DNA of 64,000 nucleotides from positions 79,174,001 to 79,238,000 of the forward strand of contig OX597823.1 in the NCBI GenBank assembly GCA_951406725.2, given 5' to 3'. The notes below the pieces were generated by a model. The model searched no databases and had not been told where the DNA came from. It saw nothing but the letters and a program-made list of their open reading frames with translations. The translations under genes and the position numbers were made by a program. Source of the stretch: Octopus vulgaris. Lineage: Eukaryota. This document shows, one piece after another, positions 3,585 to 61,779 of the stretch; the stretch's first letter is position 1, and each line of letters begins with the position of its first letter.

Positions 3585-4157
3585 ATATTCTTTTCTACTC
3601 TAAGCACAAGGCCCGAGATTTTGGGAGAGAGGGCCAGTTGATTAGATCGACTCCAGTACGCAACAGGGACTTAATTTACGATACCGAAAGAATGAAAGGC
3701 AAAGTGGATTTCGGCGGAATTTGAACTCAGAACGTAGCGGCAGACGAAATACCTTTTTTTTTTTACTACCCATAAGAGGCTACACACAGAGGGGACAAAC
3801 AAGGACAGAAAAACGGATTAAGCCGATTACATCCACCCCAGTGCGTAACTGGTACTTATTTAAGCGACCCCGAAAGGATGAAAGACAAAATTGACCTCGG
3901 TGGAATTTGAACTCAGAACGTAGTGGCAGACGAAATACCTATTTCTTTACTACCCACAAGGGGCTAAACACAGAGAGGAAAAACGGATTAAGTCGATTAC
4001 ATCGAACCTGGTGCGTAACTGGTACTCAATTTATCGACCCCGAAAGGATGAAAGGCAAAGTCGACCTCGGTGGAATTTGAACTCAGAACGGAACTGCAGA
4101 CGAAATGCCACTGAGCATTTCGCCCGGCGTGCTAACGTTTCTGCCAGCTCACCGCCA
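3585..4157 (-). mobile_element. SINE family B (tRNA head, Meta-like central domain), trimeric composite
   Basis: Three repeats of CCGAAAGGATGAAAGGCAAAGTCGACCTCGGCGGAATTTGAACTCAGAACG; one complete head GGCGGTGAGCTGGCAGAA. Confidence 0.88.
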
Positions 4158-8780: not shown

Positions 8781-8813
<33 letters not shown>

Positions 8814-8816
<3 letters not shown>

Positions 8817-8976
8817 TAAAATACAGTGTACATTATAACACATTAAGACGCTTCCATCATAAGAATCCATTACGCTAGAAAGAACAGTTGAAGTCCAAAG
8901 CACTATTCTTTCTAGCGTAATGGATTCCTATTATGGAAGCCTCTTTATATGTTTTAATGTACACTGTATTTTATAT
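8814..8976. repeat. Imperfect fold-back (~70-bp arms) next to (TA)n
   Basis: ATAAAATACAGTGTACATTA...GAATCCATTACGCTAGAAAGAA is mirrored by TTCTTTCTAGCGTAATGGATTC...TAATGTACACTGTATTTTAT. Confidence 0.88.
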
Positions 8977-9819
8977 GAACATATATATATAATCTATTGA
9001 CTAACTGTTTTTTTTACGCTAGGCTACTGGTAGTAGAAATTTCTAATTTTTTTTTTACCCTGATATTATTAACTATATATGTATATATATATAAACATAT
9101 ACACTCTTTTACTCTTTTAGAGGAATTTTTCAGCACCCCCTCGTACATGTTAATGTCAGTGTTTATTTTAGTGACTTACATTATTACTGAAATGTTTGCT
9201 AATTCTTTCGTGAAATGTCTTCCTGTTGCTGCGTAAAGAATCTACTTTTTATTCAAAAAGCCAAATTCACTTAATCGAGTATGTCGTTAGCTCGACAAAT
9301 AAAAACGCCAATATTTGATCATTCGATCTGTTGGAACATCCTTCTCATCACACCATATCTCTTAAAGAAATAGAACGACATATTAGATAAGGCAGTCTGA
9401 GTTGTACGGGGTCAGATTAGTCGGAGACGGTTGGAACGTATTTGGTCAAAGGTTAGCTTAATCAGAGATGACAACGAGGACAACAGCAAATGGATAGGTG
9501 AGAAGAATTAATAGATGTTTTAGCTAGATCTCATGTATCCAAGTAACCAGTTTACAATTAGGTTAAAGAGCTAATAGAAGACTTAGATGTTACATTGATT
9601 CCAGACGACGAATGAAAAGAGATTTTGTTATCGCAAAACATGCTGCTTTCTCGATTGCACTTGTGGCATTCTATTCCATCATTTATATTTTTTAGACAGT
9701 GTATTGGATAAATTTACCCAATATAACATTAATTTATCCTTTTTATTTTCGGGATGTAAGCTAGGAAGTGTGTTGTATTCTCTATTAAGTTAAGCGTATA
9801 ATCAATAAATTCGTTCGCA

Positions 9820-11299: not shown

Positions 11300-11315
11300 T
11301 GTGAAGAAGAAACTA

Positions 11316-11897
11316 TTGGGTTGTCCGGAAAGTTCGTGCCGATTTTTAAAGGAAAGAAAAAGGTCAATAAATACTTGCCATTACATTTTTAATCAACCAA
11401 ATATGAACCATTTTGTTGCACAATGCGTCTCTATCTTTCCTTTAACTTGAAAATACCCTCTTCTCAGAATTAAGGTGGTTTCATGGCAAAGAATTCACCA
11501 AGGTATCTTTTTACATCATCCAATTGAAATTTTTACCATTAAGACTATTCCGCAGAGACCTGGATAAGTGGAAATCTGAAGGAGCAATATCTGGTGAATA
11601 TGGAAAGTAGGGTAACATATCCTAGCCGAGCTGCAGCAATTTTTGTCTGGTTCTCAAATCATCAAGTGCCGAAAAGGAACTTTCTTATCTTCTATTTTAA
11701 AGGGTTAGCACAGGTTATAGGAACATAAAGAGTTAACACAGGTTATAGGAACATACGGCCTCTTCCACGGAAAGATGGCTGAAGCTGTGCTCTAAATGGA
11801 GGTGTAGTCAAATCCTATTTTATGGATTCAAACATGTTCTAAAATAAGTTGAAAAGCAAGCTACTATAAATCAGCACGAACTTCCCGGACAACCCAA
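11316..11897 (-). mobile_element. Internally deleted mariner element (non-autonomous)
   Basis: TIRs TTGGGTTGTCCGGAAAGTTCGTGCCGATTT / AAATCAGCACGAACTTCCCGGACAACCCAA, TA on both sides; decayed PYSPDIAPSDF motif on minus strand. Confidence 0.9.
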
Positions 11898-12249
11898 TAT
11901 ATTCAAGAAAAAACTATAACGTATAAAAAAGAGCGTTAGTAAACTACAAGGTGAAAGAAGCCGTTGAACTAAATAATGCTAAATATAACTCTGGATATGT
12001 CTTGTATCGTGTGTGCACCGTGTGTGAGCGTGAGTTTATAATTAGATTTGTTGTAATTGTTCTAATGAAAATATTTATGCCATACACACAAGGAATATCC
12101 AAACGAAATAAGAACTGAGAAAGGAATGGTGATCACAATTTGGACACAAGCACTTTGTGTTGACACAATATTTTCGTGTCTCATGATAAAATTCCTTTTT
12201 ATTTCTTTTTGTATAAATGTTTCTTATATAAATTATCACTCCGTCAATT

Positions 12250-21695: not shown

Positions 21696-21896
21696 TCATT
21701 TATAAATATTATCACTGAATTTTACTTAACCGCTTTATTGATTACGTCCCTATTCAGCGCTATCAGGTCGATCACTATTAAGCGTTATTACAATCTCGTA
21801 TAAATTGGATGAAGGTGATATATGAAAGAAATGTGAAATTTCTGTAGTCTTTGATCTGAATATAAGCATATACCAAAAGTGTTCGAAATTATTCTA

Positions 21897-22461
21897 TTTG
21901 GTTATCCGGAAAGTTCGTGCCGATTTTTAACGAAGAGAAAAATGTAAATAAATACTTGCATTACATTTTTAATCAACCAAATATAAACCGGTTTGTTGCA
22001 CAATGCGTCTCCGTCTTTCCTTTAACTTGAAAATACCCTCTTTCCAGAATTGAGGTGGTTTCATGGCAAAGAATTCATCAAGGTATCGTCTTACGTCATC
22101 CAAGGAATTGAAAATTTTACCATTTAGACTATTCTGCAGAGACCTGAATAAGGGGAAATTCGAAGGAGCAATATCTGGTGAATATGGAGGGTGGGGTAAC
22201 ACATCCCAGCCGAGTTGTAGCAATTTTTGTCTGATTCCCAAAGCATCAAGTTCCGAAAAAGAACTTTCTTATCTTCCATTTTAAAGTGTTACAGAATTAA
22301 TATATGTCATAGGAACATAAACATTCTTCCACGAAAAGATAGCTTAAACTGTGCTCTAAATGGGGGTGTTGTCAAATCCTATTTTATGGGCTTAACCATG
22401 TTCTAAAATAAGTCAAAATGTAAGCTACTATAAATCGGCACGAACTTTCCGGACAACCCAA
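21897..22461 (-). mobile_element. Internally deleted mariner element, same family as 11316-11897
   Basis: Same TIRs and TA flanks; ORF 21969-22241 reads LGWDVLPHPPYSPDIAPSNFPLFRSLQNSL, the mariner transposase C-terminus. Confidence 0.92.
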
Positions 22462-22599
22462 TAGTATGATTTATTTTTAATGTTCAGAATTCTTCTAATT
22501 GCACGATATACTTTCCAATGATGGATTTCGAAAGTAGTCAGTTAAACAGATTCCAATAATTACATTAATGATTGCATGATTGTTTTGAAGAGGGTATTC

Positions 22600-23195: not shown

Positions 23196-23226
<31 letters not shown>

Positions 23227-23314
23227 AGGAAAATTTTTTTTAAAAATGCAGAATGCTCAAATGAAAGAAATTTTTAATAAAATGAGAAATTGATAAAATA
23301 TATAAATATATATT

Positions 23315-23355
23315 TATTCAACCGGTTTTCGTCATTGTATGACTTGTCAAGAATA
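23315..23355 (-). ncRNA. Minimal type I hammerhead ribozyme-like motif in the Penelope 3' pseudo-LTR (U3-A8 variant)
   Basis: Minus strand: UAUUC-UUGACAA-GUCAU-aca-AUGAC-GAAAA-CCGGUU-GAAUA. Stems I and II pair; stem III is palindromic (AACCGGUU); one extra A in the GAAA segment. Confidence 0.65.
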
Positions 23356-23977
23356 TTTATGTTTTAAAAGGTTTTTTTAAAAATTAGAAAGGGGAAAAAA
23401 AGAAAATTGCATTGTTTTTTGCAAAAGAATAATGATAAAAATGTACAAAAATTAAAAAATAATTACTCCGATACATTGTGAGTTCGTTGTGTATCTTGAG
23501 TTTTATGATTGTTCACGAAAAAATTACCTTGAAGTATTAAGATCCAAAGGGATTAAGAGCATGTGTTGTGTGGTTTAATTCAGCATGTTTGCAGGACAGG
23601 AAGTAGTAGTAATTGTGGATCTTCAGTTCCTGTGTTGTGAGTAGGGGGAGACAACTCTTTTAAGTTCTTCAATAAAACCCAAATTATAAAATTATCATTT
23701 TAGCTTCATTTGCGTTATCTTTTTTATATAATTGCTTGTTAACTTAACTTTCAGATTTTAACACTTTATTTATATTATTTTCTAATTATATAAATCTGCA
23801 TAGACAATTGCATTTCAAATTGTCGTATCATTTATAATAAAAATGATAGTAATAACAACAATAGTAAAAATGGTATTTAAAGAATATAAGTTTTAGCTTG
23901 AAGTGATGAATGCATGGTATCTTTATATATTTGTGTTAGTCCATCCATGAAGAGTGAGGTAGAGAAAGGAAGTTTGA

Positions 23978-26077
23978 TCAACGAGGAGTTTGCATATTAA
24001 GTTGTGTTTGGAATTTTTCAATAAAGAGATTCTCCTTGTTAATTCTCTCCTGTGCGGTGATCCCGTCTTTACATTGGTAGAAGGGGAATATATAGAATTT
24101 GGGGTTTAAGTCTTTAGCACATGAGTCTAAGTGGTCACTCAGTGGAATTTGTCGGTATTCCGGGAGATTTATTTGTTCTTTATGCACCGTTACTCGTTTA
24201 CGTAACGGGAGACTCGTTTGTCCAACATAATTATGTTGGCAACCAGCGCATGTGAGAACGTAGATAAGGTTCTCGGAGGAACCGGAGAAGTTAGTCTTGA
24301 TTTTAAACTTCGTACCTTGTTTGAAGGTAAATTCAGAGCCTTCAAGTAGAAAGGGGCAGGTACCACAGTTTGAGCGTGCACATTTTTTTACTGTTGGGGG
24401 TGGATGTGGTGTGTGAAGTTTGGCATTTGTCAAGAGTTTTTTTAAAGATTTGTGTTGCCTTTTACATTTGAGGATTTTGTGTGTATTTATAATGTTTTTC
24501 ATTTTTGGATCTGTTGACAGTAGACTGAGGTTTTGTATGATTGTGGTGTATGCTTCGATATTTTTGGGGTTGTGGGTGGAAATGTATGGAAGTATTTTGA
24601 GGTTGTGTGTGGTGTTAGGTTGGGTGGTTTTCAGTGTAGTGTTGTCTAGTTCTTTGGCGCGTTTTATTCCATACTCTATAAGGGTGGAGGGATATTGACG
24701 TTGTAATAGTGTTTTTTTGAGGTCTTGAAGGCGTATTTTTCGTGTTTTTGGATCCGAGACAATGGTGCATACCCTTTTAGCTAAATTGAAAGGGATATTT
24801 GTCTTGGTGTGTTTTGGGTGGCATGAACTAAAGAGGAGGTATTGTTGTGAGTCTGTAGGTTTGTGGTAGATGTCTGTTATGATTTGGTTCTTAGGTGTTT
24901 TTATAATTAGGAGATCAAGGAATGGGAGATGATGTTTGCTTAATTCCATAGTGAATTGGATGTTGGGATGTATGTTGTTTAGTATGGTTTTGAATTCCAG
25001 GAGTTTTTCATAAGGTTCTTTCCATATGATGAAACAATCATCTAAATACCTTTTCCAGTTTTCCATTAGGTAGGTGTGGAAAACATGTCCAAATTTCTGG
25101 CTTGATATTTCATAGAGTGACAGTTCGAAGTAACCCATTATGAGGTTCGCAAGGACTGGTGCAGCCTTGGTACCCATCGCAATGCCACATTTTTGACGGT
25201 AGTGTGTGTCGTCGAAGAGAAAAAAATTGTTTGACAGAATGAACTTGAGAGATTCTGTAATAAAAGACTTGTTAATGCGGTCAGGGAATGTCTCTGGGTG
25301 TTTTTCTAGCCAGAAGTCAATTGCCTCTATACCATACTCATGTGGGATGTTGGTGTAGAGGTTGATGACATCAAAGGATACCAGGAGTGCCTCCTCGTTA
25401 ACTGTTTTCGGGAGGTGTTTGAGCATGTCCAGATCATCCCTAATGAAACTTTTGATGTGGGTAAGGAAAGGTTTCAAAAGGATGTCTAGGAAGTTACTCA
25501 GGCGGTGTGTTTCACAGGAGGTACCAGCCACGATGGGCCTTAGTTTTAGGTCCTCCGGTGCTTTGATGTTGATGTGGATGTCAGTGGAGAGTTTGCAGGC
25601 TTCGGTGATGTATTTGTTTTTATGGATTTTAGGAAGGCCATAAAAAAGGCTGGGCTTGCATTTGAAAATGGTGATATAATCCCTTTCTTTTTCTGTGAGT
25701 CCCTGACCGTGTTGGTGTATGAGTGTGGTGAGGTTTCTGATTCTTTTTTGCTGTTTGTAGTTGTTAATAACCTCATAGAAAATGTTATTGTTAAGCATGG
25801 AAAACACTAGGTGTTTATAAAATTCCGTGTCCATAAGGACCACAGCACTCTCTTTATCCGCTTCTTTGATGGTGAGGTTTTTATCCAGTTGTATGTCTCG
25901 TAGGTTTTCCCATTCTTCCTTACTGAAATTGGATTTTACCTTGGTTTTGCTTGGGGTAAAGGGGAGACTCTGGATGTGTTTGCAGAAATCGTCCAGTGTT
26001 TTATTTCTCCCTTTTGGTGGTAGGAAGTTGCTTTTATTTCTGATCAATGAATCGTCCCCATTGTTGATATCTGTCAA
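23978..26077 (-). CDS. Penelope-type reverse transcriptase with C-terminal GIY-YIG endonuclease (699 aa open frame; true N-terminus lies upstream across a frameshift)
   Basis: RT motifs YGLPKIHK, LRPIV, SFDVINLYTNIP, QKCGIAMGTKAAP, RYLDDCF, LPFLDL, YHKPT; Cys linker CARSNCGTC (Neptune-like); GIY-YIG motif LIYVLTCAGCQHNYVGQT. Upstream frames read FCRKLRL and, after a 1-bp shift near 26135, INILARGLKFTPTP. Confidence 0.95.
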   Translation of the reverse strand: MTDINNGDDSLIRNKSNFLPPKGRNKTLDDFCKHIQSLPFTPSKTKVKSNFSKEEWENLRDIQLDKNLTIKEADKESAVVLMDTEFYKHLVFSMLNNNIFYEVINNYKQQKRIRNLTTLIHQHGQGLTEKERDYITIFKCKPSLFYGLPKIHKNKYITEACKLSTDIHINIKAPEDLKLRPIVAGTSCETHRLSNFLDILLKPFLTHIKSFIRDDLDMLKHLPKTVNEEALLVSFDVINLYTNIPHEYGIEAIDFWLEKHPETFPDRINKSFITESLKFILSNNFFLFDDTHYRQKCGIAMGTKAAPVLANLIMGYFELSLYEISSQKFGHVFHTYLMENWKRYLDDCFIIWKEPYEKLLEFKTILNNIHPNIQFTMELSKHHLPFLDLLIIKTPKNQIITDIYHKPTDSQQYLLFSSCHPKHTKTNIPFNLAKRVCTIVSDPKTRKIRLQDLKKTLLQRQYPSTLIEYGIKRAKELDNTTLKTTQPNTTHNLKILPYISTHNPKNIEAYTTIIQNLSLLSTDPKMKNIINTHKILKCKRQHKSLKKLLTNAKLHTPHPPPTVKKCARSNCGTCPFLLEGSEFTFKQGTKFKIKTNFSGSSENLIYVLTCAGCQHNYVGQTSLPLRKRVTVHKEQINLPEYRQIPLSDHLDSCAKDLNPKFYIFPFYQCKDGITAQERINKENLFIEKFQTQLNMQTPR

Positions 26078-27347
26078 AGCTTCTGTTAGGCGAAGTTTTC
26101 TGCAGAATTCAGAAACGTCATCCTTGACCTCCGGGGGTTGGGTGTTCTTGGGGTGGGTGTGAATTTCAAACCTCTTGCTAGGATGTTGATTTGGGTTGGT
26201 GTCAGTGTTTTGCTGGAGAGGTTTATAATTTTTGTTTTCTTATTTTGGGTCTGTGTTAGCGGTGGTGTTTGTATTTTTCCCCTCTGTCTAAAAAATGGTT
26301 GTTGAGGTAAGGGGTGTATTCTTTGTTAAAGTTCTGGTTGTATGTGTAGGAGTGTTTTTGGGTGGGGAGGTTGGAGGGGGGTAGGTAGTTGTGGTATTTA
26401 TGTTGGCATGGGATGCGATGGTGTAAGGATTTGTGAGAAATGCGATGGGTTTTTGGGTGTGTCTGGTAGATTGTATGGGGGGATGTAGGGGGGTATGTAG
26501 TTGTGGTGATTGGGTTCGTGTGGGATGTGAGGGTTTGGAGATCTGTAGGAAATGTGGTAGGAATGTGGTTGTTGGATGGGTGGACTATAGGGGGTTCGTT
26601 GGGTGGGTATTATATGTATCGGTGTGGGTAGGATGCCTTGTTTGTTATTAGTGTGAGGGAGAGGAGCCTTGAGGGGGGGATAATTTCTAGTGTATGGGAG
26701 GTTCTTGAAGGTTCTAATCGGTGGGGGAGGGGTGTTAGAGTGATTGGAAGACCAGGTCTTGTTTGAGATGTTTCGGGGGGAAAAGCTTTTTTATATGGTT
26801 GGGGGAGGTTGTGTCCTGTTAGGAGGGGGTTTGGAGAGTATGTGTATTTGAGGTGTGGTTTGGAATGGTGTTTATGGGGTACAGTGGAAGTCTGTGTTGT
26901 GGGTACTTTTATGAATGGGTTTTTGGATTTATGGTTTAATATGAATTGTGTTTCATAGTTGAGGAAGAAATCTTTGTTGTTTTCCCAGCGTTTAAGGGAG
27001 GTTCGTTCTTCCTTTTCACATTCATCTTTCCATAGTTTAATAACAAGTTCGAGGGGCTGTTCGTTGGTGTGTGAGGTTAGTTCTAGAAGTATCTCATCGT
27101 CTATTTTTGTGTATTTTTGTTCGTGGTTTTGTGCTCTGAGTTTTAGAAGTTCTAAAAAAAGAAGTTAAAAAACCTTTTAAAACATAAATGACGAAAACCG
27201 GTTGAATAAATTTATATATTTATATATTTTATCAATTTCTCATTTTATAAAAAATTTTTTTCATTTGAGCATTCTGCATTTTAAAAAAAAAATGTCCTTA
27301 CTTATCATTTCTCCACGTGCGGTCAACACAACCCCACCATTTATTGA

Positions 27348-27405
<58 letters not shown>

Positions 27406-31178: not shown

Positions 31179-32635
31179 TAGGTATAGATATAGATATATA
31201 TATACCTACATATACACACATATATGTATATGATTAATGATTTCATCCTTCACAGCACAAACATTGCGAGAGCTAATTCTTCGGATGTTAATCAATTAAA
31301 TAAAAGCAAAATTGTGTCACAGAAACTTCATATACAATAATAAGTGCCAAGAAAATATAATAGACACAGTGTGTCATTCAAAGAAAGCAGCGATGTTTGT
31401 ATTGTAAATGAATGAACAAAGTTGTCAAGAATAATACTAAAGGTCAATTGACTGCTTAATTTATGATAGCCTAAGGAACATAAAATCAAGTGAAATGGAT
31501 TTTATATAGAGCTCAATAGAAAGGAAAGGAAAACAAAAGCTTGAGAGATATAATATTGACAGAACGATAAAATATATACCGAAGTACAAATGTATGGAGA
31601 CATACTCCTACACAAACAAGTAATGTAAAAATATTAATGTATTCCCATATACACCCACGTACACACAGCGAGTGTTCATATATATGTGCACATAGGATAG
31701 AAATAGAAGCGTTATATATTTATATTTATTTTGTTTAGCTGCAGAGATGCATAAAAACCTGCAAAGAGTTATAGAGCATTCGCCTGCGAGAAGGCATAGA
31801 GCATTCGTTAAATCACTATACTGTTAAACTAAATATAACTTTTCTTGTATTCGAACTTTTCTTGTATGTAAACTCTAACTAATGTTGACGTATGGCGGCG
31901 TGGTTAAGAAGCCCGCTTTACAACCGTCGAACTTCGTGTTCAGTCCTTGAGTAAGTGACTTCTACTATAGCTTCAGAACAACCAATGCCTTTTGCATAAA
32001 TGCGGTAGATAGAAAACGTGTGGAAGCCCTTCGCGTATATGTGTATTAAGTAAGAATGACAAGGTGAGTTAAGATTTTAACTCTTGGCGGCGGAGAAATG
32101 GGTTGCTGATGAATATTAATAAAATCTGACATCATTGAAGATATCACTCTATCTGACTTGCCGTGGGGAGCTTCTCTTCTTTGTCAGTCGTTAGAAAAGC
32201 GCGTGGCTAAGAGCTGTTTTGGCTGTTATTTCTAGCAATGCAGGGACTATACTTCTGTCTTTCGGTTCTAAATTGCGAATACCCACCTTCATAATTCATT
32301 TGCTATATACATATATATATTTCATACATATTTGATTAATTATATTAATCATATTTGATATACGTTTGATTAATTGATTAATTAAATTCGATTAAAGCTT
32401 GTATTAACCTCATAAAGACATGGTTTCATCCAAGAAAATACTTGCTCAATACCTAGTATTTGGTGGGGAGATTAATATCCTTATTGAATACCTATTCATA
32501 TGACCTGAGCATAATATCTTTAGAGAGAAAAAATATACCCTTCGATGTTTTATAAATGTTTATGTATTCATTACACCAGTCGAAGGTTTTATTTACCCCC
32601 TCTGAAGCTATTATGCCCAGGTCATATAGATATAG

Positions 32636-32700
<65 letters not shown>

Positions 32701-32705
<5 letters not shown>

Positions 32706-33412
32706 AATATTAAAATTACTAAGTCTCTCTAAAAGAGAACACGGCAGCGTTCCTGGAAATTAATAGTTATCGCCATACTAATATGGCATTCTTATAAAAA
32801 TAAGAATAAAGCTGTCCGCTTATTAGCTCCATGAGGCCAGCGCCTTAAGTTAGCTATTTGTATCCATATGACCCCGAAACGCGTCTGTAGCTGTCGATCA
32901 AGTAGTGTGGAGCGACTGACCTCCCTTGTTCGAAGGTTATATGGATACAGTTTGTGTATCAAATAGCTAACTTAAGGCGATGGCCTCATGGAGCTAATAA
33001 GCGGACAGCTTTATTCTTATTTTTATAAGAATGCCATATTAGTATGGCGATAACTATTAATTTCCAGGAACGCTGCCGTGTTCTCTTTTAGAGAGACTTA
33101 GTAATTTTAATATTTCTATTATTGGAAACAAGTGGATGTATTCCACCGAAACTAGGTAAATAAAACCTTCGAACAGAGATAGTCGGAAGCGACACCTACT
33201 GGTCTGACTACGCTACATTGACAAGGGGCAATACCCCGAAACGCGTCTGTAGCTGTCGATCAAGTAGTGTGGAGCGACTGACCTCCCTTGTTCGAAGGTT
33301 ATATGGATACAGTTTGTGTATCAAATAGCTAACTTAAGGCGATGGCCTCATGGAGCTAATAAGCGGACAGCTTTATTCTTATTTTTATAAGAATGCCATA
33401 TTAGTATGGCGA

Positions 33413-33418
<6 letters not shown>
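32701..33418 (+). mobile_element. Non-coding (TA)n-inserted element: inverted partial copy plus about 1.5 tandem copies of a 362-bp hammerhead-containing unit (retrozyme / PLE pseudo-LTR-like)
   Basis: About 32705-32860 is the inverted copy of about 32960-33115; 32871-33056 is directly repeated at 33233-33418; GAAACGCGTC ends at 32885 and 33247 (362 bp apart); (TA)n on both flanks. Confidence 0.85.
33212..33253 (+). ncRNA. Type I hammerhead ribozyme, U3-A8 core variant
   Basis: GCUACA-UUGACAA-GGGG-caaua-CCCC-GAAAC-GC-GUC-UGUAGC; stem I extends with internal loops to AACCUUCGAACA (33164) / UGUUCGAAGGUU (33300). Confidence 0.85.
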
Positions 33419-33444
<26 letters not shown>

Positions 33445-40035: not shown

Positions 40036-40990
40036 ATACCATCGCAAACTGTTTATTCATCGGCTATTCACGTGGAGCGAACTCACGATGAATGGTACCA
40101 TATTAGAATAAAAAAAGAAAGAAAGAATATTATGATCAACATCAACTTCGCATTTGTGCAACTTTGCCTCCAAGCATATGCTATGACTGTCCTTTTATTA
40201 TCAGATCTTAGAAGAAATAGCCTCGTTTCGTCGCTTGTTGTAAGAATTTTTCAAATTCTTCTTTCAGATATCGACTGATGGAATATCACGTCAACGATTG
40301 TGATCAATTCTCTTTCAGTTCATTAGACGGAAATCGCATTTGAAATGACACGATTTTTTTCAATTCATACAAAATCATAGCAATTGAATTGCTGTTGTTG
40401 TTTAATTCAGTGTATAGTCCAGCGACAAATGATAGCACGCATAGTCGACATGTCTTCATTCAAAGTTTGAGTTGAAGGATGTCGATATTTCAAACATCTT
40501 CGGTGTATATTCTTAGCGATTTGAAATTAATTCAAGCACGACACGGAATATTGAATACGCCTTAGACATTCTTCCTATATCTATCTTTATTGCAAAATTA
40601 AAAAAATTTCCCTAAATATTTTGCACCCTTTGAAACAAATATTCATACAAACACGAAAAAGTATACAAAAGAGTTTCCAAATTTGAAAGAACATTTCAAG
40701 CAGGTACGTTTCTCTCCCAGATTCTTCAGCCTTCCAGTAGAACAAATCACCCACTGCAGTAAAGTTGTGATGTGCAAAAAGGTGTTCAAGGTTTCCAAAT
40801 TTCTGGCATGTTGAACTGTGTCATGTTCTTCTTTTCTGACAAACTGTGCCCAACTGACCATACTATACTGTGTAGGGGACAAAATAATGCGCATGCGCAA
40901 AATAAAAAAATACTGAGGGGCGACAATTTACCCATCGCACACGGCATGTGCGTGCGTGTGTGTTTGTGTCTGTATGTGTGACTGTGCGTG

Positions 40991-41026
<36 letters not shown>

Positions 41027-41181
41027 ATAAAGGGTGGAATATAATTAATTTAATAAAATTAATCAATTTCACCTAGTAGATTTATCGGTATGGAAAAGAC
41101 CATATTTGGTAAGGGTTATAATAATTATAAATAAGGGTTAAATGAAACAAGTTGCTCAAAACCGCATACCGAATAGGAAAT

Positions 41182-41239
41182 ATTATATTGACAAGGAAAT
41201 GAACCTTCGGTTCTAATCCAGAAACGAGTCGTCTATAAT
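41182..41239 (+). ncRNA. Type I hammerhead ribozyme, U3-A8 variant (copy 1)
   Basis: AUUAUA-UUGACAA-GGA-aau-GAACC-uuc-GGUUC-uaa-UCC-A-GAAACG-agu-CGUC-UAUAAU; predicted cleavage after C41233. Confidence 0.75.
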
Positions 41240-41739
41240 TAATCCATAGGCTGGGATTTCGTTATTTTCTGCCTTTTTTGCCATATACAGCTTGCAAATT
41301 CTGTTTGTTTGTGGAGACTTTTTACTAGTAGAGGAAATGGTGACCAATTTTGGCTGCTATTTCTAATATTTTCGGTATGCGGTTTTGAGCAACTTGTTGC
41401 ATTTAACCCTTATTTATAATTATTATAACCCTTACCAAATATGGTCTTTTCCATACCGATAAATCTACTAGGTGAAATTGATTAATTTTATTAAATTAAT
41501 TATATTCCACCCTTTATTGCATATTGAATACTTTTGCTCCCTTACAAGTTATCTACGAATTTTTCGTTTCGTTGGTAACGTTTTTGTAGCTCACGTGGTA
41601 AATTTTGGAGGGAAATATGAATTCGCATGTCGGTATAGGTGTAGGAATGCTAGCAGTTCTGTTAGACCGTCCGATGTCGCTGATCGTATTGGTGTAACGG
41701 GTGAGTTTTTCCCCTAGCATTTCTAGATCTATAGGAAAT

Positions 41740-41797
41740 ATTATATTGACAAGGAAATGAACCTTCGGTTCTAATCCAGAAACGAGTGGTCTATAAT
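41740..41797 (+). ncRNA. Type I hammerhead ribozyme, U3-A8 variant (copy 2)
   Basis: Same as copy 1 except GAGTGGTC instead of GAGTCGTC in stem III; predicted cleavage after C41791. Confidence 0.68.
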
Positions 41798-41876
41798 TAA
41801 TCCATAGGCTGGGATTTCGTTATTTTCTGCCTTTTTTGCCATATACAGCTTGCAAATTCTGTTTGTTTGTGGAGAC

Positions 41877-41951
<75 letters not shown>

Positions 41952-42002
41952 GTATATACATAAAAGATAGGTTGATAGAAAAGCAGACAGATGGATAGAC
42001 AT

Positions 42003-49130: not shown

Positions 49131-50851
49131 ATCAGACCCCAGTTGCCGAATACAAGCCACACTCTTGAAACTCACAGTACCAAGGATATATATATATATA
49201 TATATCGCTGTAAGTATGTAAGTATGTTCTGTACAGAAAGTTACAGTTGGACACATAAACGAAGATTCGACAAGGATAAATCTTAGTTGCTTTTTTAAAG
49301 AAGCCTTTTCATAAAGTTTGATTTTTTTTTAAAGTATCTCATTGATCGCAGTTTGCATTAATGTTTGCTGACCATTTTATACACGTGTATGTAAAGTATC
49401 TTTAATCTAGAAAAATAATGTATGGATAAACAATTACAGTAAATCGAATCGTGTGTAGATCGCTATTGTTTTCAACTGATGCCATGTATAAACTTTGTTT
49501 GTAAACATGAGCTTACTATTTTCTTAATTTGAGCAACTTTTCTATTGTAAATGTTTAACTTTTAAAGTTAGGAATCCTATTCTGTTATCACATTGAATTA
49601 TCACATGTGTAAATTGGAACTGACACTGCGAACTTTGAATGTGCGTGTGCATTTCAAGAAATATAGAAAATTATTTCTGAATGTGTTTCGTATGAATAAA
49701 AAATTGATTTTGTGCGTGTCTTTTTTTTAATAAAAATATTTGTCTCATTCCTTTGGACGATATTGTAAAAATCGTATTTTACATTCTAAATATGTCACGT
49801 TCAATTATACTTTGTATTCCGGGTAATATCACCTACAGGGTTCAGTAAAATTCTATAGCAGACCAAGAAAACGGATTCATGGAATAATTAAAGTATCAGA
49901 CGCCAAAATTAGCAGTATTTTGTTTAGGTTCTATGGCGTCTGGGTTCAAATACCATTAAAGTCAATGTGGCCTCTAATCTTCTTAGGACCGATAAAAAGT
50001 ACCTGTTTCGTAGGTTGGATTAACGGAATTTTAAGAACATCAAACGAAAATTCCTTATCGTATTTCTTCAAGTCGGTTTCATTCTGAATTCTTGTGTGGT
50101 AAACTTAATCCGTCATGCGGTTTAAGACCACCACCTACTCATTCTGGGCCTTTTACGAAGTTCAAACTGTTGCAAGCATTCGGGTCAGGTATTCAGTTCC
50201 TCTTTCCTCCCACCAGTCACAGAAGCCCTGAAAAATAAATGGTCATGGGCGCTCCCCTTAATTTATGCTACAGAGCAATTTAACATTGTAGTTTTTAACG
50301 GTAAAAATCTTATAGAATATCCTATTGCTCTTAATGAGTTAAAACGAACCTACACACAATATTCATATTTATATTTTGGTGAAGATTGCAACGTAAGAAC
50401 ACCATATTTTCTGATCTCTATGTTTTAAACTTTGGAAATTGCGATTCTAATTACGAAATGAAATTCATGGTGAGGCTTTATGAATATGGTTCGAGTGTAT
50501 CACTTGAATAAAGGTTTAAATATAAACTTTGATGATCAATGAGACGAAAATATTTAATTTAGGAGCAATTTTTTCTATACTTGTTATCGCCAAAGTTTAA
50601 AGCATAGATTTCGAGATAACTTTCTAAAACAAAACAAAAAAAAAATCATTTTAAAATCACATGAAAATAAGAATTAAAAAATACATATAGAGAGATTGCT
50701 TATTGCACAACTCAGGACTTTTTATTTGTTTCTTTGCAACATTGCTATTATGTCTAAAAAAATGTGTATAATCTTTTTTTCTTTATATCGCTGGTTTCGT
50801 AACACTGGCGCTAATCTAGCAGAATTGCCAATGTAATTTGAACATCTAATT

Positions 50852-51248
50852 TGCATTCTATAACTGCTAAACATCCTTTGCTAATGATCAGAGCGTAAGA
50901 TTACATAACTATATATTTTATGAAGAAAAATTCTTCTTATTGTATTTTACACGGTTTTGTGTCTATATGAATGATATGAATGTACGCACACACTCACACA
51001 TACCTGCAAGCACACACTCATCACACACATGTATACTTGCAGATATCTGCATAAATATATATATACATATATGCATACATACATGCATATATATATATAT
51101 ATATATAAATATGCGTACATTCATATCATTCATATAGACACAAAACCATGTAAAATACAATAAGAAGAATTTTTCTTCATAAAATATATAGTTATGTAAT
51201 CTTACACTCTGATCATTAGCAAAGGATGCTTAGCAGTTATAGAATGCA
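50852..51248. repeat. 137-bp inverted repeat with 123-bp microsatellite-rich spacer
   Basis: Arms 50852-50988 and 51112-51248, three transition mismatches seen; right arm runs into (TA)n. Confidence 0.93.
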
Positions 51249-51276
51249 TATATATATATATATGTGTGTGTGTGTT

Positions 51277-55592: not shown

Positions 55593-56854
55593 CAGGGTGA
55601 GGAAGCAAAATTTACAATGAACGTTAAGTTGCTTTTTCTCAGGAGGCACTAGGTCAATTGTTTTGAAACCTAGCATATACTGATGTCATACTCATACCTA
55701 ACACTATTATCCTTACCTTTTCAGAAACTTTTGCCCATATGAGTAATCAGGAAAGCAAACGTCAAAGAGTGTGTGATTTGCTGAATGCACTCGTCACACC
55801 AAAGGAGATTTCAAGGATAGTTGGAGTGTCCATAAAGACTGTTTATAATGTAAAGAATAGAATGACTATGAGCAAAACTATTACGAGGAAGTCTGGAAGT
55901 GGAGGAATCATCAAAAAACGTACCAAAGCTTTTATTCAAGCTCTCAAATCCAAAATCCTAAAGGATGGCAATTGAACTTGAGGTAGACAAGAAGACCATT
56001 AGAAATGCAGTAAAATATGATTTGAGGTTAAAATCTTACACAAGAACACCAAAACATTTGTTGACAACAGCTATGAAGGAAAAGAGATTGGAGAGGTGCA
56101 AGAAAATTATTACATGGTTCAAGAAAGAGTCCTCCATTGTAACAATCTTTTCAGATGAAAAGATCTTCACTGTCGATGCTGTTCTGAACCGCAGAAATGA
56201 CAGATTTATTTCAAAATCAACAGCTGAGGTTAAGGGGACATTCAAAACAAAACATCCTGTACAAGTTATGGCTTTTGGTGTTGTGGCTTCCGATTGAAAG
56301 AAAATGCCTATAAAATTCTACAAAGCTGATGAAAGGATCAATGTTAATACTTACTACAAGACTCTGAGATACCAGGTATTGCCATGGCTTAAAGCAAACT
56401 ACCCAGATGGTAATTATGTATGGACACAGGATGGTGCTCCAGCCCACACAGCCAGAAAAATACAAGATTTCTCCAAATCCAACTTTAGAGAATTTTGGGA
56501 ATCATGTTTATGGCCGCCTTCTAGCCCAGATCTAAACCCTCTGGATTATGCTATTTGGAGCATTTTAGAACATGCTACCAATAGAACATCACACAGCAAT
56601 GTCGACTCTCTTAAAGATACTATTACAGAAGAATGGGAGTTGTCTCCCGAATATTTGAGGAACACTTGTACAAGTTTCAGGAAGCGTGTGAAGGCAGTTT
56701 TTGAGAAAGAAGGAGGACACAGAATAAAAACATTTTCTATTACGTAAATTTTCTTGTGGCAAATAAATTCTCATAACTTTCAATAAAATAATTGGTCATA
56801 CACTGTCTTTCAATCCCTGCCTCAAAATATTGTAAATTTTGCTTCCTCACCCTG
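55593..56854 (+). mobile_element. Tc1/mariner superfamily DNA transposon, DD37D (maT/mori-type), full length with disabled transposase
   Basis: Perfect 26-bp TIRs CAGGGTGAGGAAGCAAAATTTACAAT (55593-55618 / 56829-56854), TA on both sides, transposase motifs inside. Confidence 0.95.
55739..56747 (+). pseudogene. DD37D transposase pseudogene (frameshift near 55965, stop at 56295-56297)
   Basis: HTH-like N-terminus; FSDEKIFTVD; WTQDGAPAH; WPPSSPDLNPLDY with 37 residues between second and third Asp; split across three ORFs in the track. Confidence 0.92.
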
Positions 56855-56856
56855 TA

Positions 56857-56912
<56 letters not shown>

Positions 56913-57121
56913 GGAAAAATTATACAAAATGTATAAATAGATGATGAGTAAAGCACCGGCACAGTTTCGATTACCTGTTGTTATCAGAATAAAAACATTT
57001 TCTATTACGTAAATTTTCTTGTGGCAAATAAATTCTCATAACTTTCAATAAAATAATTGGTCATACACTGTCTTTCAATCCCTGCCTCAAAATATTGTAA
57101 ATTTTGCTTCCTCACCCTGTA

Positions 57122-57167
<46 letters not shown>

Positions 57168-57241
57168 TGGAAAAATTATACAAAATGTATAAATAGATGA
57201 TGAGTAAAGCACCGGCACAGTTTCGATTACCTGTTGTTATC
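56721..57241 (+). repeat. Tandem duplication (~260 bp x2) spanning the transposon right end and its flank
   Basis: 56721-56985 is repeated at 56986-57241, differing mainly in the (TA)n tract; creates a second right TIR ending at 57119. Confidence 0.9.
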
Positions 57242-59448: not shown

Positions 59449-59519
59449 TGTGAGTGTGTATGTATATATATATATATATATATAATTGATCAAAATAAAA
59501 ACATGATGCGAAGGATTCA

Positions 59520-59597
59520 GCGGTACATATGTTTCGGGCCTTTATTAGACAGATTTATAACAATGCATAATGTATGTCTGTGGCCTTCTTCAGCCGC
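59520..59597 (-). ncRNA. Type I hammerhead ribozyme inside a fold-back insert (59484-59730)
   Basis: Minus strand: GCGG-CUGAAGA-A-GGCC...(long stem II)...GGCC-C-GAAAC-AUAU-GUA-CCGC; palindromic ACAUAUGU stem III; perfect 59-bp inverted repeat 59484-59542 / 59602-59660. Confidence 0.75.
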
Positions 59598-60467
59598 GCA
59601 CAAGGCCCGAAACATATGTACCGCTGAATCCTTCGCATCATGTTTTTATTTTGATCAATTTACTCCACCACCTACACCACCAAACGGCATACACAGGTGC
59701 TTAGAATTATCAAGTACTCACCCCGAATTTCTATATATATATATATATATTACATATGTTTGTATATGTATATAATACATATGTATACATATTCAAACAC
59801 ACATACATACTATACATGCACATACACACTTGTATGTGTGTGTGTGTGTTATGCCCAGTTCATTTATATAACAGCAGGCCTACACGCGAGAGTAATTTCT
59901 AACACGGTAAATATATTCCTATTCTGCTTCTGATACCAGAGAAAAAGTAGGTAAGACTACTGACGGAGGGTTCCTTCCTCAATTGACCAATCCTTGATGG
60001 AGCAGTACCCGATTTCCTTCCCTCATCCTTTTTTAAAATGTACTCTCCTCATAGATAACGCTGTGAAAAATCAAAATATCACCCTGCCAGATAATTTTGC
60101 ATATTTGATGTTTAGACAACACGTCATTGATTATACTTTACATATTTTATACACAGTACAGTGTGAACCAAAAAGAAGGAAATAAATTTAAATATTAGAA
60201 AGGTTAGTTGTTAGTCGAAATTACAAGCACATACTTAAGCTAAAGAAATCGTGCACTCCTCCGTTGAAAATCTGTCAATGAACAGTAGAACTGTACGTCA
60301 GGAAACAACCCAAATATTTATTCACACGCATTGAACGAAAAGATGATGCCTGTTTAATTCTTGCGAACATTTTGTGCAATAAATATTTACCAAAAACTCC
60401 AAAGTTTTTGTAAGATGTTTGTTAAAAGAATAAATCGTTTATGTTTATGATGTTTACATCATCGACC

Positions 60468-61472: not shown

Positions 61473-61511
<39 letters not shown>

Positions 61512-61519
<8 letters not shown>

Positions 61520-61655
61520 ATAGAGGGCATTATTACACATAAATGCCTCACACTAAGAGAGACATAAGTCATTACTACCAAAATTTTGGTAGTAATGACT
61601 TATGTCCCTCTTAGTGTGAGGCATTTATGTGTAATAATGCCCTCTATACAATATA
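61512..61655. repeat. 144-bp near-perfect palindrome with no spacer, adjacent to (TA)n
   Basis: Centre AAAA|TTTT at 61583/61584; 72-bp arms with one mismatch. Confidence 0.95.
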
Positions 61656-61779
61656 AATTAATATTTTCAAAAGAAAAAAATTATTTTCGAAATTTTTTTC
61701 TCTTATGAGGTTTTTCACGCTAACTACCTGATAATTTCTTGTTAAGATTCCTTATTAAGAAGTTATCCTTAATTGTTAA

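Follow-up and report, generated by a model that had tools for sequence, protein, structure and literature searches.

The 863-bp element between the (TA)n tracts 40995–41023 and 41881–41962 of the DNA analysed here (64,000 nt from Octopus vulgaris, hereafter the window; AT-rich animal DNA, dense in microsatellites) is best read as a new family of a known class, the non-LTR retrozymes. It consists of an inverted 154-bp arm followed by 1.27 head-to-tail copies of a non-coding 558-bp unit (Table 1). We consider it moderately probable that this locus was invaded recently by a non-autonomous Penelope-like element (PLE) that exists in many copies and whose hammerhead ribozyme cuts as a dimer. Mobilisation of the family by a Penelope-type machinery is very probable, and cleavage by the family hammerhead under some condition is reasonably probable; release of the 558-nt RNA in cells from this particular locus appears unlikely.

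The direct repeats that define the unit, R1 and R2, are identical at 151 of 152 positions and are spaced by 558 bp, with a 406-bp middle between them and no Pfam-matching reading frame, so that the non-coding 558-nt unit proposed in the initial annotation stands. The inverted copy reported upstream of it is present as well; however, it is not a separate feature, being an inverted copy of the unit interior, and its outer end corresponds to the second 3′ terminus of the unit. The arm meets the forward part at 41173 with 1 nt of microhomology. As arm and repeats together contain only two mismatches in 306 aligned positions, the insertion at this locus is probably recent. The tail starts with a hairpin (about 41330–41367), which is retained in family variants. 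Furthermore, the predicted monomer folds better than its shuffled counterparts, both as a linear (z –4.6) and as a circular molecule (z –4.8, compared with –1.9 to +1.2 for six control stretches).

Table 1. Features of the 558-nt element and of the related elements in the window (positions as counted in the window; TRF, tandem repeats found with this program).
Feature	Position	Strand	Remark
Left (TA)n tract, putative insertion target	40995–41023		TRF, period 2, 14.5 copies
Inverted 5′-truncated arm	41020–41173	–	Copy of 41371–41524, 153/154 identical
Repeat R1	41173–41324	+	Hammerhead plus the 91 nt that follow the cut
Hammerhead-like motif 1, type I	41176–41245	+	Predicted cut after 41233
Predicted cut-to-cut 558-nt monomer	41234–41791	+	35% G+C; no Pfam-matching frame
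200-nt tail	41325–41524	+	Between the two 3′ termini
Terminal motif	41507–41518	+	Common to PLE arm outer end (27334–27345); also at 41026–41037 (–)
Repeat R2	41731–41882	+	Ends at TA continuous with the right tract
Hammerhead-like motif 2	41734–41803	+	Predicted cut after 41791
Right (TA)n tract	41881–41962		TRF
PLE, candidate helper type	23225–27350	–	Between (TA)n tracts
Minimal U3-A8 hammerhead of the PLE	23320–23350	–	At the 3′ end; palindromic stem III
PLE frame, RT and C-terminal GIY-YIG	23978–26239	–	Uninterrupted, 753 aa; Cys-rich linker
Sister element, 362-nt unit	32698–33419	+	Same plan; 65-nt tail
Single whole U3-A8 hammerhead of the sister element	33218–33247	+	

Both motifs contain the U3-A8 core UUGACAA (from 41188 and 41746), GAAA, and a GUC ending at 41233 and 41791, and the U3-A8 cores with predicted cuts 558 nt apart are thus where they had been placed. 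Motif 1 comprises a stem I of 6 bp with a 3×3 loop and an outer helix, a 3-bp stem II with an inner hairpin, and a palindromic stem III. All core nucleotides (3–9, G12–A15.1, U16.1, H17) are present in both copies, and stems I and III can be formed, stem I with 6 bp and stem III with 3 bp (copy 1) or 2 bp (copy 2). The earlier description as "two complete hammerheads" was not confirmed: in both motifs, an extra A (41220, 41778) separates C11.1 from G12, i.e., stem II from GAAA, so that stem II does not close directly on A9 and G12, and the base of stem II is only 3 bp long in both. In addition, copy 2 has G for C at 41788, leading to a G·G mismatch in stem III and breaking the palindrome ACGA-G-UCGU. 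The extra A counts against a canonical hammerhead, though not against hammerhead-like function. An alternative stem II register with G10.1·A11.1 was rejected on inspection, as it offers one standard pair followed by a mismatch. Note that stems I and II of the motif (41176–41245) each contain the same GGA-AAU/UAA-UCC helix-and-loop, which permits alternative pairings; these units may form a loop-loop contact.

As monomers, both motifs favour a non-hammerhead register, by 2.9 (–14.8 vs. –11.9 kcal/mol) and 2.0 kcal/mol. The predicted stem III duplex is strongest between two copies 1 (–11.0 kcal/mol), compared with –7.6 kcal/mol for copy 1 with copy 2 and –4.2 kcal/mol for two copies 2. If the hammerhead works, the best reading is that it does so as a dimer. 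Hammerheads with palindromic stem III are known to act as dimers, with low activity (PMC4209133; PMC6765202). Because of the mismatch in its copy 2, the locus is probably a poor source of monomers. The expectation that any plus-strand transcript would release the 558-nt RNA is accordingly doubtful, given the extra A, the favoured non-hammerhead register and a copy 2 mismatch that is rare in the family.

A relaxed hammerhead descriptor, devised after the motifs had been seen, matched three times in the window, whereas 40 block shuffles gave 0.075 matches on average (three of the 40 with one match, none with more). Rfam hammerhead models gave no match in the window at the gathering threshold, and none at E≤10 in 40900–42000 (15 matches, no ribozyme); this test is insensitive, since the more canonical motif of the 362-nt unit also scores below the gathering threshold. 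Plant-type LTR retrozymes were rejected as a class for this element, because the motif is of type I rather than type III and the repeats form a partial tandem accompanied by an inverted arm.

The 558-nt element is one of many. The stretch 41325–41882 was found, whole or in part, in 20 of 24 listed runs from nine studies with four organism labels. Contigs of four of these runs were aligned to the unit: three of DNA type (three organism labels; 832, 761 and 267 contigs fitting the unit) and a fourth, X7, with 23. Their identities extend from above 99 to below 90%. In one DNA-type run (X1), 217, 260, 261 and 94 contigs fall into the identity bands above 99, 95–99, 90–95 and below 90%, respectively. 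The joint between repeat and middle is present in all four runs. Family members, for which a search of sequence data had been suggested, were thus recovered in large numbers from public-run contigs; pattern scans for them gave no match in metagenome_contigs or viral_contigs. A "second, larger retrozyme-like family", as it had been called, is supported by the hundreds of diverged contigs and the family-wide joint, although its size is unremarkable: published non-LTR retrozyme units measure 51–972 bp (10.64898/2026.07.22.740005). Like the non-LTR retrozymes, it is a multi-copy family of low G+C with one type I motif, here a variant, per non-coding head-to-tail unit.

The extra nucleotide before G12 is a trait of the family. 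No deletion of 41778 occurs among the best 12 of the 14 insertions and deletions, and six of the seven listed pieces that cross this nucleotide (32 of 1,919 pieces were listed) are ungapped. C at 41788, in turn, accounts for 99.7, 98, 94 and 96% of the depth in the four runs, which makes the G of copy 2 rare in the family. Single contigs omit 88 or 165 nt of the middle (one each), so 558 is only one of several unit lengths. Among the 24 loose-end entries listed out of 198, those at 41517 (14, 19 and 9 contigs) have five letters in common, beyond which agreement drops to 0.59–0.66; this fits a putative family 3′ terminus at 41517 amid varied flanks. In every DNA-type run, blocks 41349–41383 and 41465–41517 break off into loose ends whose flanks differ, which suggests that these blocks are modules common to further repeat families; a match of 17/18 to the first of them is found at 32217–32234. 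The contigs of run X7, taken to be RNA by guess, reach all 30 bins and include the repeat-to-middle joint; in its main pieces, 6 of 347 letters depart from this locus. It informs on neither the expression of the locus copy nor a circle, since the letters differ and contigs carry no strand, ends or circles. None of the listed carriers of the unit is an RNA-labelled run.

The main rival explanation accepts the same Penelope-mobilised family but holds that its hammerhead no longer cuts: the extra A would have been fixed by descent in a successful lineage, uncut read-through multimers would have been the source of its copies, and the fold would persist solely for protein binding or as a structural element. 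We regard it as possible, though not probable. G12 is the general base in hammerhead chemistry, and the extra A beside it, found in both copies and across the family, could disable the core; the non-hammerhead register is ahead by about 3 kcal/mol, and the cDNA of this insertion crossed two cut sites. Furthermore, only one of nine predicted Xenopus retrozyme dimers is reported to have cleaved in vitro, leaving eight candidates without cleavage, and cleavage was dispensable for insertion in vitro by an anole PLE protein, as hammerhead mutants left insertion unaffected; the hammerhead of the anole PLE cut only in the presence of protein (PMC11167929). The substitutions found in the family point the other way. 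Among the best 40 of the 58, five fall into 41729–41807 and all five are compatible with the fold, including the dimer palindrome: a C-G to U·G and an A-U to G·U change, N7, the centre of the palindrome, and C at 41788. The two unpaired variants fall on the sole free positions of the core and the palindrome. Statistically this argument is weak: four neutral changes out of four give P of about 0.03 in a rough model from an alignment in which heavily changed contigs may be missing, and the lack of substitutions in 14 core positions compares with 1.0 expected (P(0) = 0.36; again 40 of 58).

In the reading that we prefer, i.e., a non-autonomous PLE with a working hammerhead, tandem copies elsewhere in the genome would be transcribed, and the hammerhead, weak as a monomer, would cut at GUC as a dimer via its palindromic stem III, perhaps aided by protein. 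The unit-length RNA produced by this cleavage would possibly be circularised. An RT-GIY-YIG protein of Neptune/Nematis type would then nick a (TA)n tract and reverse-transcribe either the circle or an uncut multimer, initiating inside the unit and proceeding in this case for 710 nt across two cut sites, whereas the inverted arm would arise from a second priming or a template switch, beginning 200 nt beyond the first start, at the tail terminus. As the forward part crosses two cut sites, it is compatible with a circular and with an uncut multimeric template alike. The unit is best read as a passenger of a Neptune-type enzyme, since the partial tandem, the adjacent inverted truncated copy, the tail and the microsatellite target are the published signature of PLE insertion (PMC8557442; PMC11167929). 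The PLE tail reflects two internal starts of reverse transcription (PMC11167929).

A PLE of the type expected for such a helper lies in the same window. Its 753-aa frame has an RT match, and its relatives are annotated as GIY-YIG proteins; among the named ones are oyster proteins (46–47%). The invariant linker cysteines (620/625/628) and the CCHH residues (664/667/686/703) place it with Neptune or Nematis according to the description of these groups in PMC8557442, an assignment made from the residue pattern. At its 5′ end, the PLE has an inverted arm reaching 50 nt beyond the element's own 3′ end (50-nt tail). This arm omits most of the 5′ half of the hammerhead at a short direct match; in the hammerhead itself, N17 is apparently missing, or a G stands there. 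The PLE also has an upstream 184-aa frame without a Pfam match and a C-rich spacer. Relatives of the PLE protein were found at two loci in metagenomes and ten in genome_contigs. The hammerhead descriptor gave no match in these 12 loci, even though two hammerheads were seen by eye in the two inspected, and it is therefore too strict for short stems I. These two related elements from other sources both have C3-G8 cores (read by eye), located in the 3′ regions of the PLE RT-endonuclease (L003, about 3650–3700; L004, about 1850–1890); in that of L004, stem II has a U·U at its base. Both contigs are filed as bacterial genomes and are probably host DNA within the assemblies.

A third hammerhead-bearing element of the window is built around a 362-nt unit. 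The 558-nt and 362-nt units show no significant similarity (best blastn match 12/13 nt, E 0.76, common core included), as had been noticed by eye, and their architecture is indeed the same, with TA target, inverted arm, tail and U3-A8 core in both. The upstream hammerhead of the 362-nt element is truncated inside stem II at the inversion junction, where a few letters match neither template; the circular fold of its unit has a z of –7.4. U3-A8, TA target, and inverted arm with tail are common to all three elements including the PLE, their tails measuring 50 (PLE), 65 (362-nt unit) and 200 nt (558-nt unit), and in each of them the terminal TA of the template merges into the TA target. The inversion junctions (41173; 32861–32871; about 27165) lie in or just past the hammerhead in all three, as if reverse transcription stalled or switched there.

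The outer ends of the 558-nt element arm and the PLE arm match at 12 of 13 nt. Among 200,000 random stretches, no more than 23 match as well, some of them probably self-overlaps, and a pattern built post hoc from the motif occurs three times in the window, only at these sites, compared with 0.04 expected. Outside the terminal motif, unit and PLE share the 7-nt core but no significant similarity (best E 0.10). As the motif was spotted post hoc and there is no significant similarity elsewhere, the local PLE need not be the helper. Only tentatively do we combine these observations into one proposal, according to which an active U3-A8 core with the extra A, missed by standard searches, would be mobilised by the local Neptune/Nematis-type protein via the short terminal signal and two internal starts 200 nt apart.

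Three further explanations are less probable. The repeats could be non-coding pseudo-LTRs of an unseen autonomous PLE, left behind by 5′ truncation; truncated PLE copies with hammerheads and inverted arms are common (PMC4209133, PMC8557442), yet in our element only 406 nt without a Pfam-matching frame lie between the repeats, both junctions of the unit lie internally, the whole family shows the repeat-to-middle joint, and shorter forms join across the middle, which makes this origin improbable. Still less probable is that the copy sits in sense orientation in a host intron and cuts pre-mRNA, as the initial annotation had considered. Large introns would be conceivable in such a genome, but no support for this idea was found: among the 290 stop-to-stop frames with a length of 45 aa or more, only a transposase exceeded the Pfam cut-off and none gave a host exon, a test of low sensitivity that short exons would escape. 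Moreover, the insertion appears recent, copy 2 is weakened, and retrozymes are depleted in introns and exons of Xenopus (10.64898/2026.07.22.740005). Finally, a product of DNA-level processes (foldback or MITE-like element, duplication-inversion, or microsatellite assembly artefact) with a chance look-alike of a hammerhead is highly improbable, because, even though many inverted repeats of the window adjoin (TA)n and none of the contig pieces listed covers the stretch from end to end, the motif exceeds shuffles and the family is dispersed over nine studies with its junctions within contigs. Terminal inverted repeats of a DNA transposon were ruled out, as the right end has no counterpart in the arm.

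Other repeats are also present in the window. Long inverted repeats without a hammerhead match adjoin TA tracts at 8799–8991, 50849–51251, 59484–59660 and 61503–61664 and are possibly further non-autonomous Penelope-type inserts. Degraded pieces of Tc1/mariner-type transposons (21894–22463, 11313–11899, 55667–56747) were found as well, a mariner fragment having mixed animal matches (best 55–69%), and a 265-nt direct duplication with TA tracts (56720–57241) lies beside a mariner-type remnant. A tRNA scan gave no genes, and a bacterial promoter scan nothing relevant.

The way in which non-LTR retrozymes move is still a hypothesis, argued from common hammerheads, co-occurrence and trees. A retrozyme-type unit that bears PLE insertion marks and shares its uncommon core pair and end motif with an autonomous-type PLE lying beside it turns this into a testable link. 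If the core with the extra A cuts, the hammerhead consensus widens next to the catalytic G12, and animal hammerhead counts would be too low; if, in addition, the helper is matched, a helper-passenger pair would be at hand for rebuilding retrozyme mobilisation in vitro. If the core is inactive, what remains is an ordinary insertion of a repeat whose class is known.

We found no report of ribozymes or retrozymes in cephalopods in the literature searched, and the paper on Octopus vulgaris repeats does not mention ribozyme, hammerhead or retrozyme in its main text or supplement (PMC13282606). Among known systems, the element resembles the metazoan non-LTR retrozymes (PMC7229834; 10.64898/2026.07.22.740005) in its head-to-tail non-coding unit with one type I motif each, a G+C content under 50%, the lack of recognisable LTR features, a structured predicted monomer, the co-occurrence of an autonomous PLE, and a length within their range. 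In contrast to them, it has a core with U3-A8 and an extra A before G12, and comprises only 1.27 units. Retrozyme repeats yield linear and circular monomers (PMC7229834); no counterpart of its inverted arm and 200-nt tail is described in the available parts of these two papers.

The core itself has parallels elsewhere. Natural hammerhead variants likewise show U3-A8 covariation and insertions of one base in the core (A6a, U13a, 2a/2b); the effect of the natural core insertions that were tested varies between tolerance and low activity (PMC3088659). Section 8 of that paper mentions no insertion at 11.1/12 in its text, and none was found in the text of the literature searched. While unit length and U3-A8 are already published, the extra A at 11.1/12 thus appears to be new and is a probable core variant. 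With the PLE pseudo-LTR hammerheads (PMC4209133), the motif shares type I, a palindromic stem III suited for dimers, and the G10.1-C11.1 pair; the U3-A8 covariant also occurs in Schistosoma pseudo-LTR hammerheads (about 1,300 matches). Their extra nucleotide is usually located between 9 and 10.1, whereas that of the 558-nt unit is on the opposite strand, at 11.1/12, and their stem I is of a short minimal form, whereas the unit has a canonical 6-bp stem I with an internal loop. Compared with the EN+ PLEs of Neptune/Nematis type (PMC8557442; PMC11167929), the unit differs in having no reading frame and a tail of 200 nt instead of 30–40 bp, but it shares with them the partial tandem, the inverted 5′-truncated copy, the tail at one end, and the AT-rich or (TA)n target.
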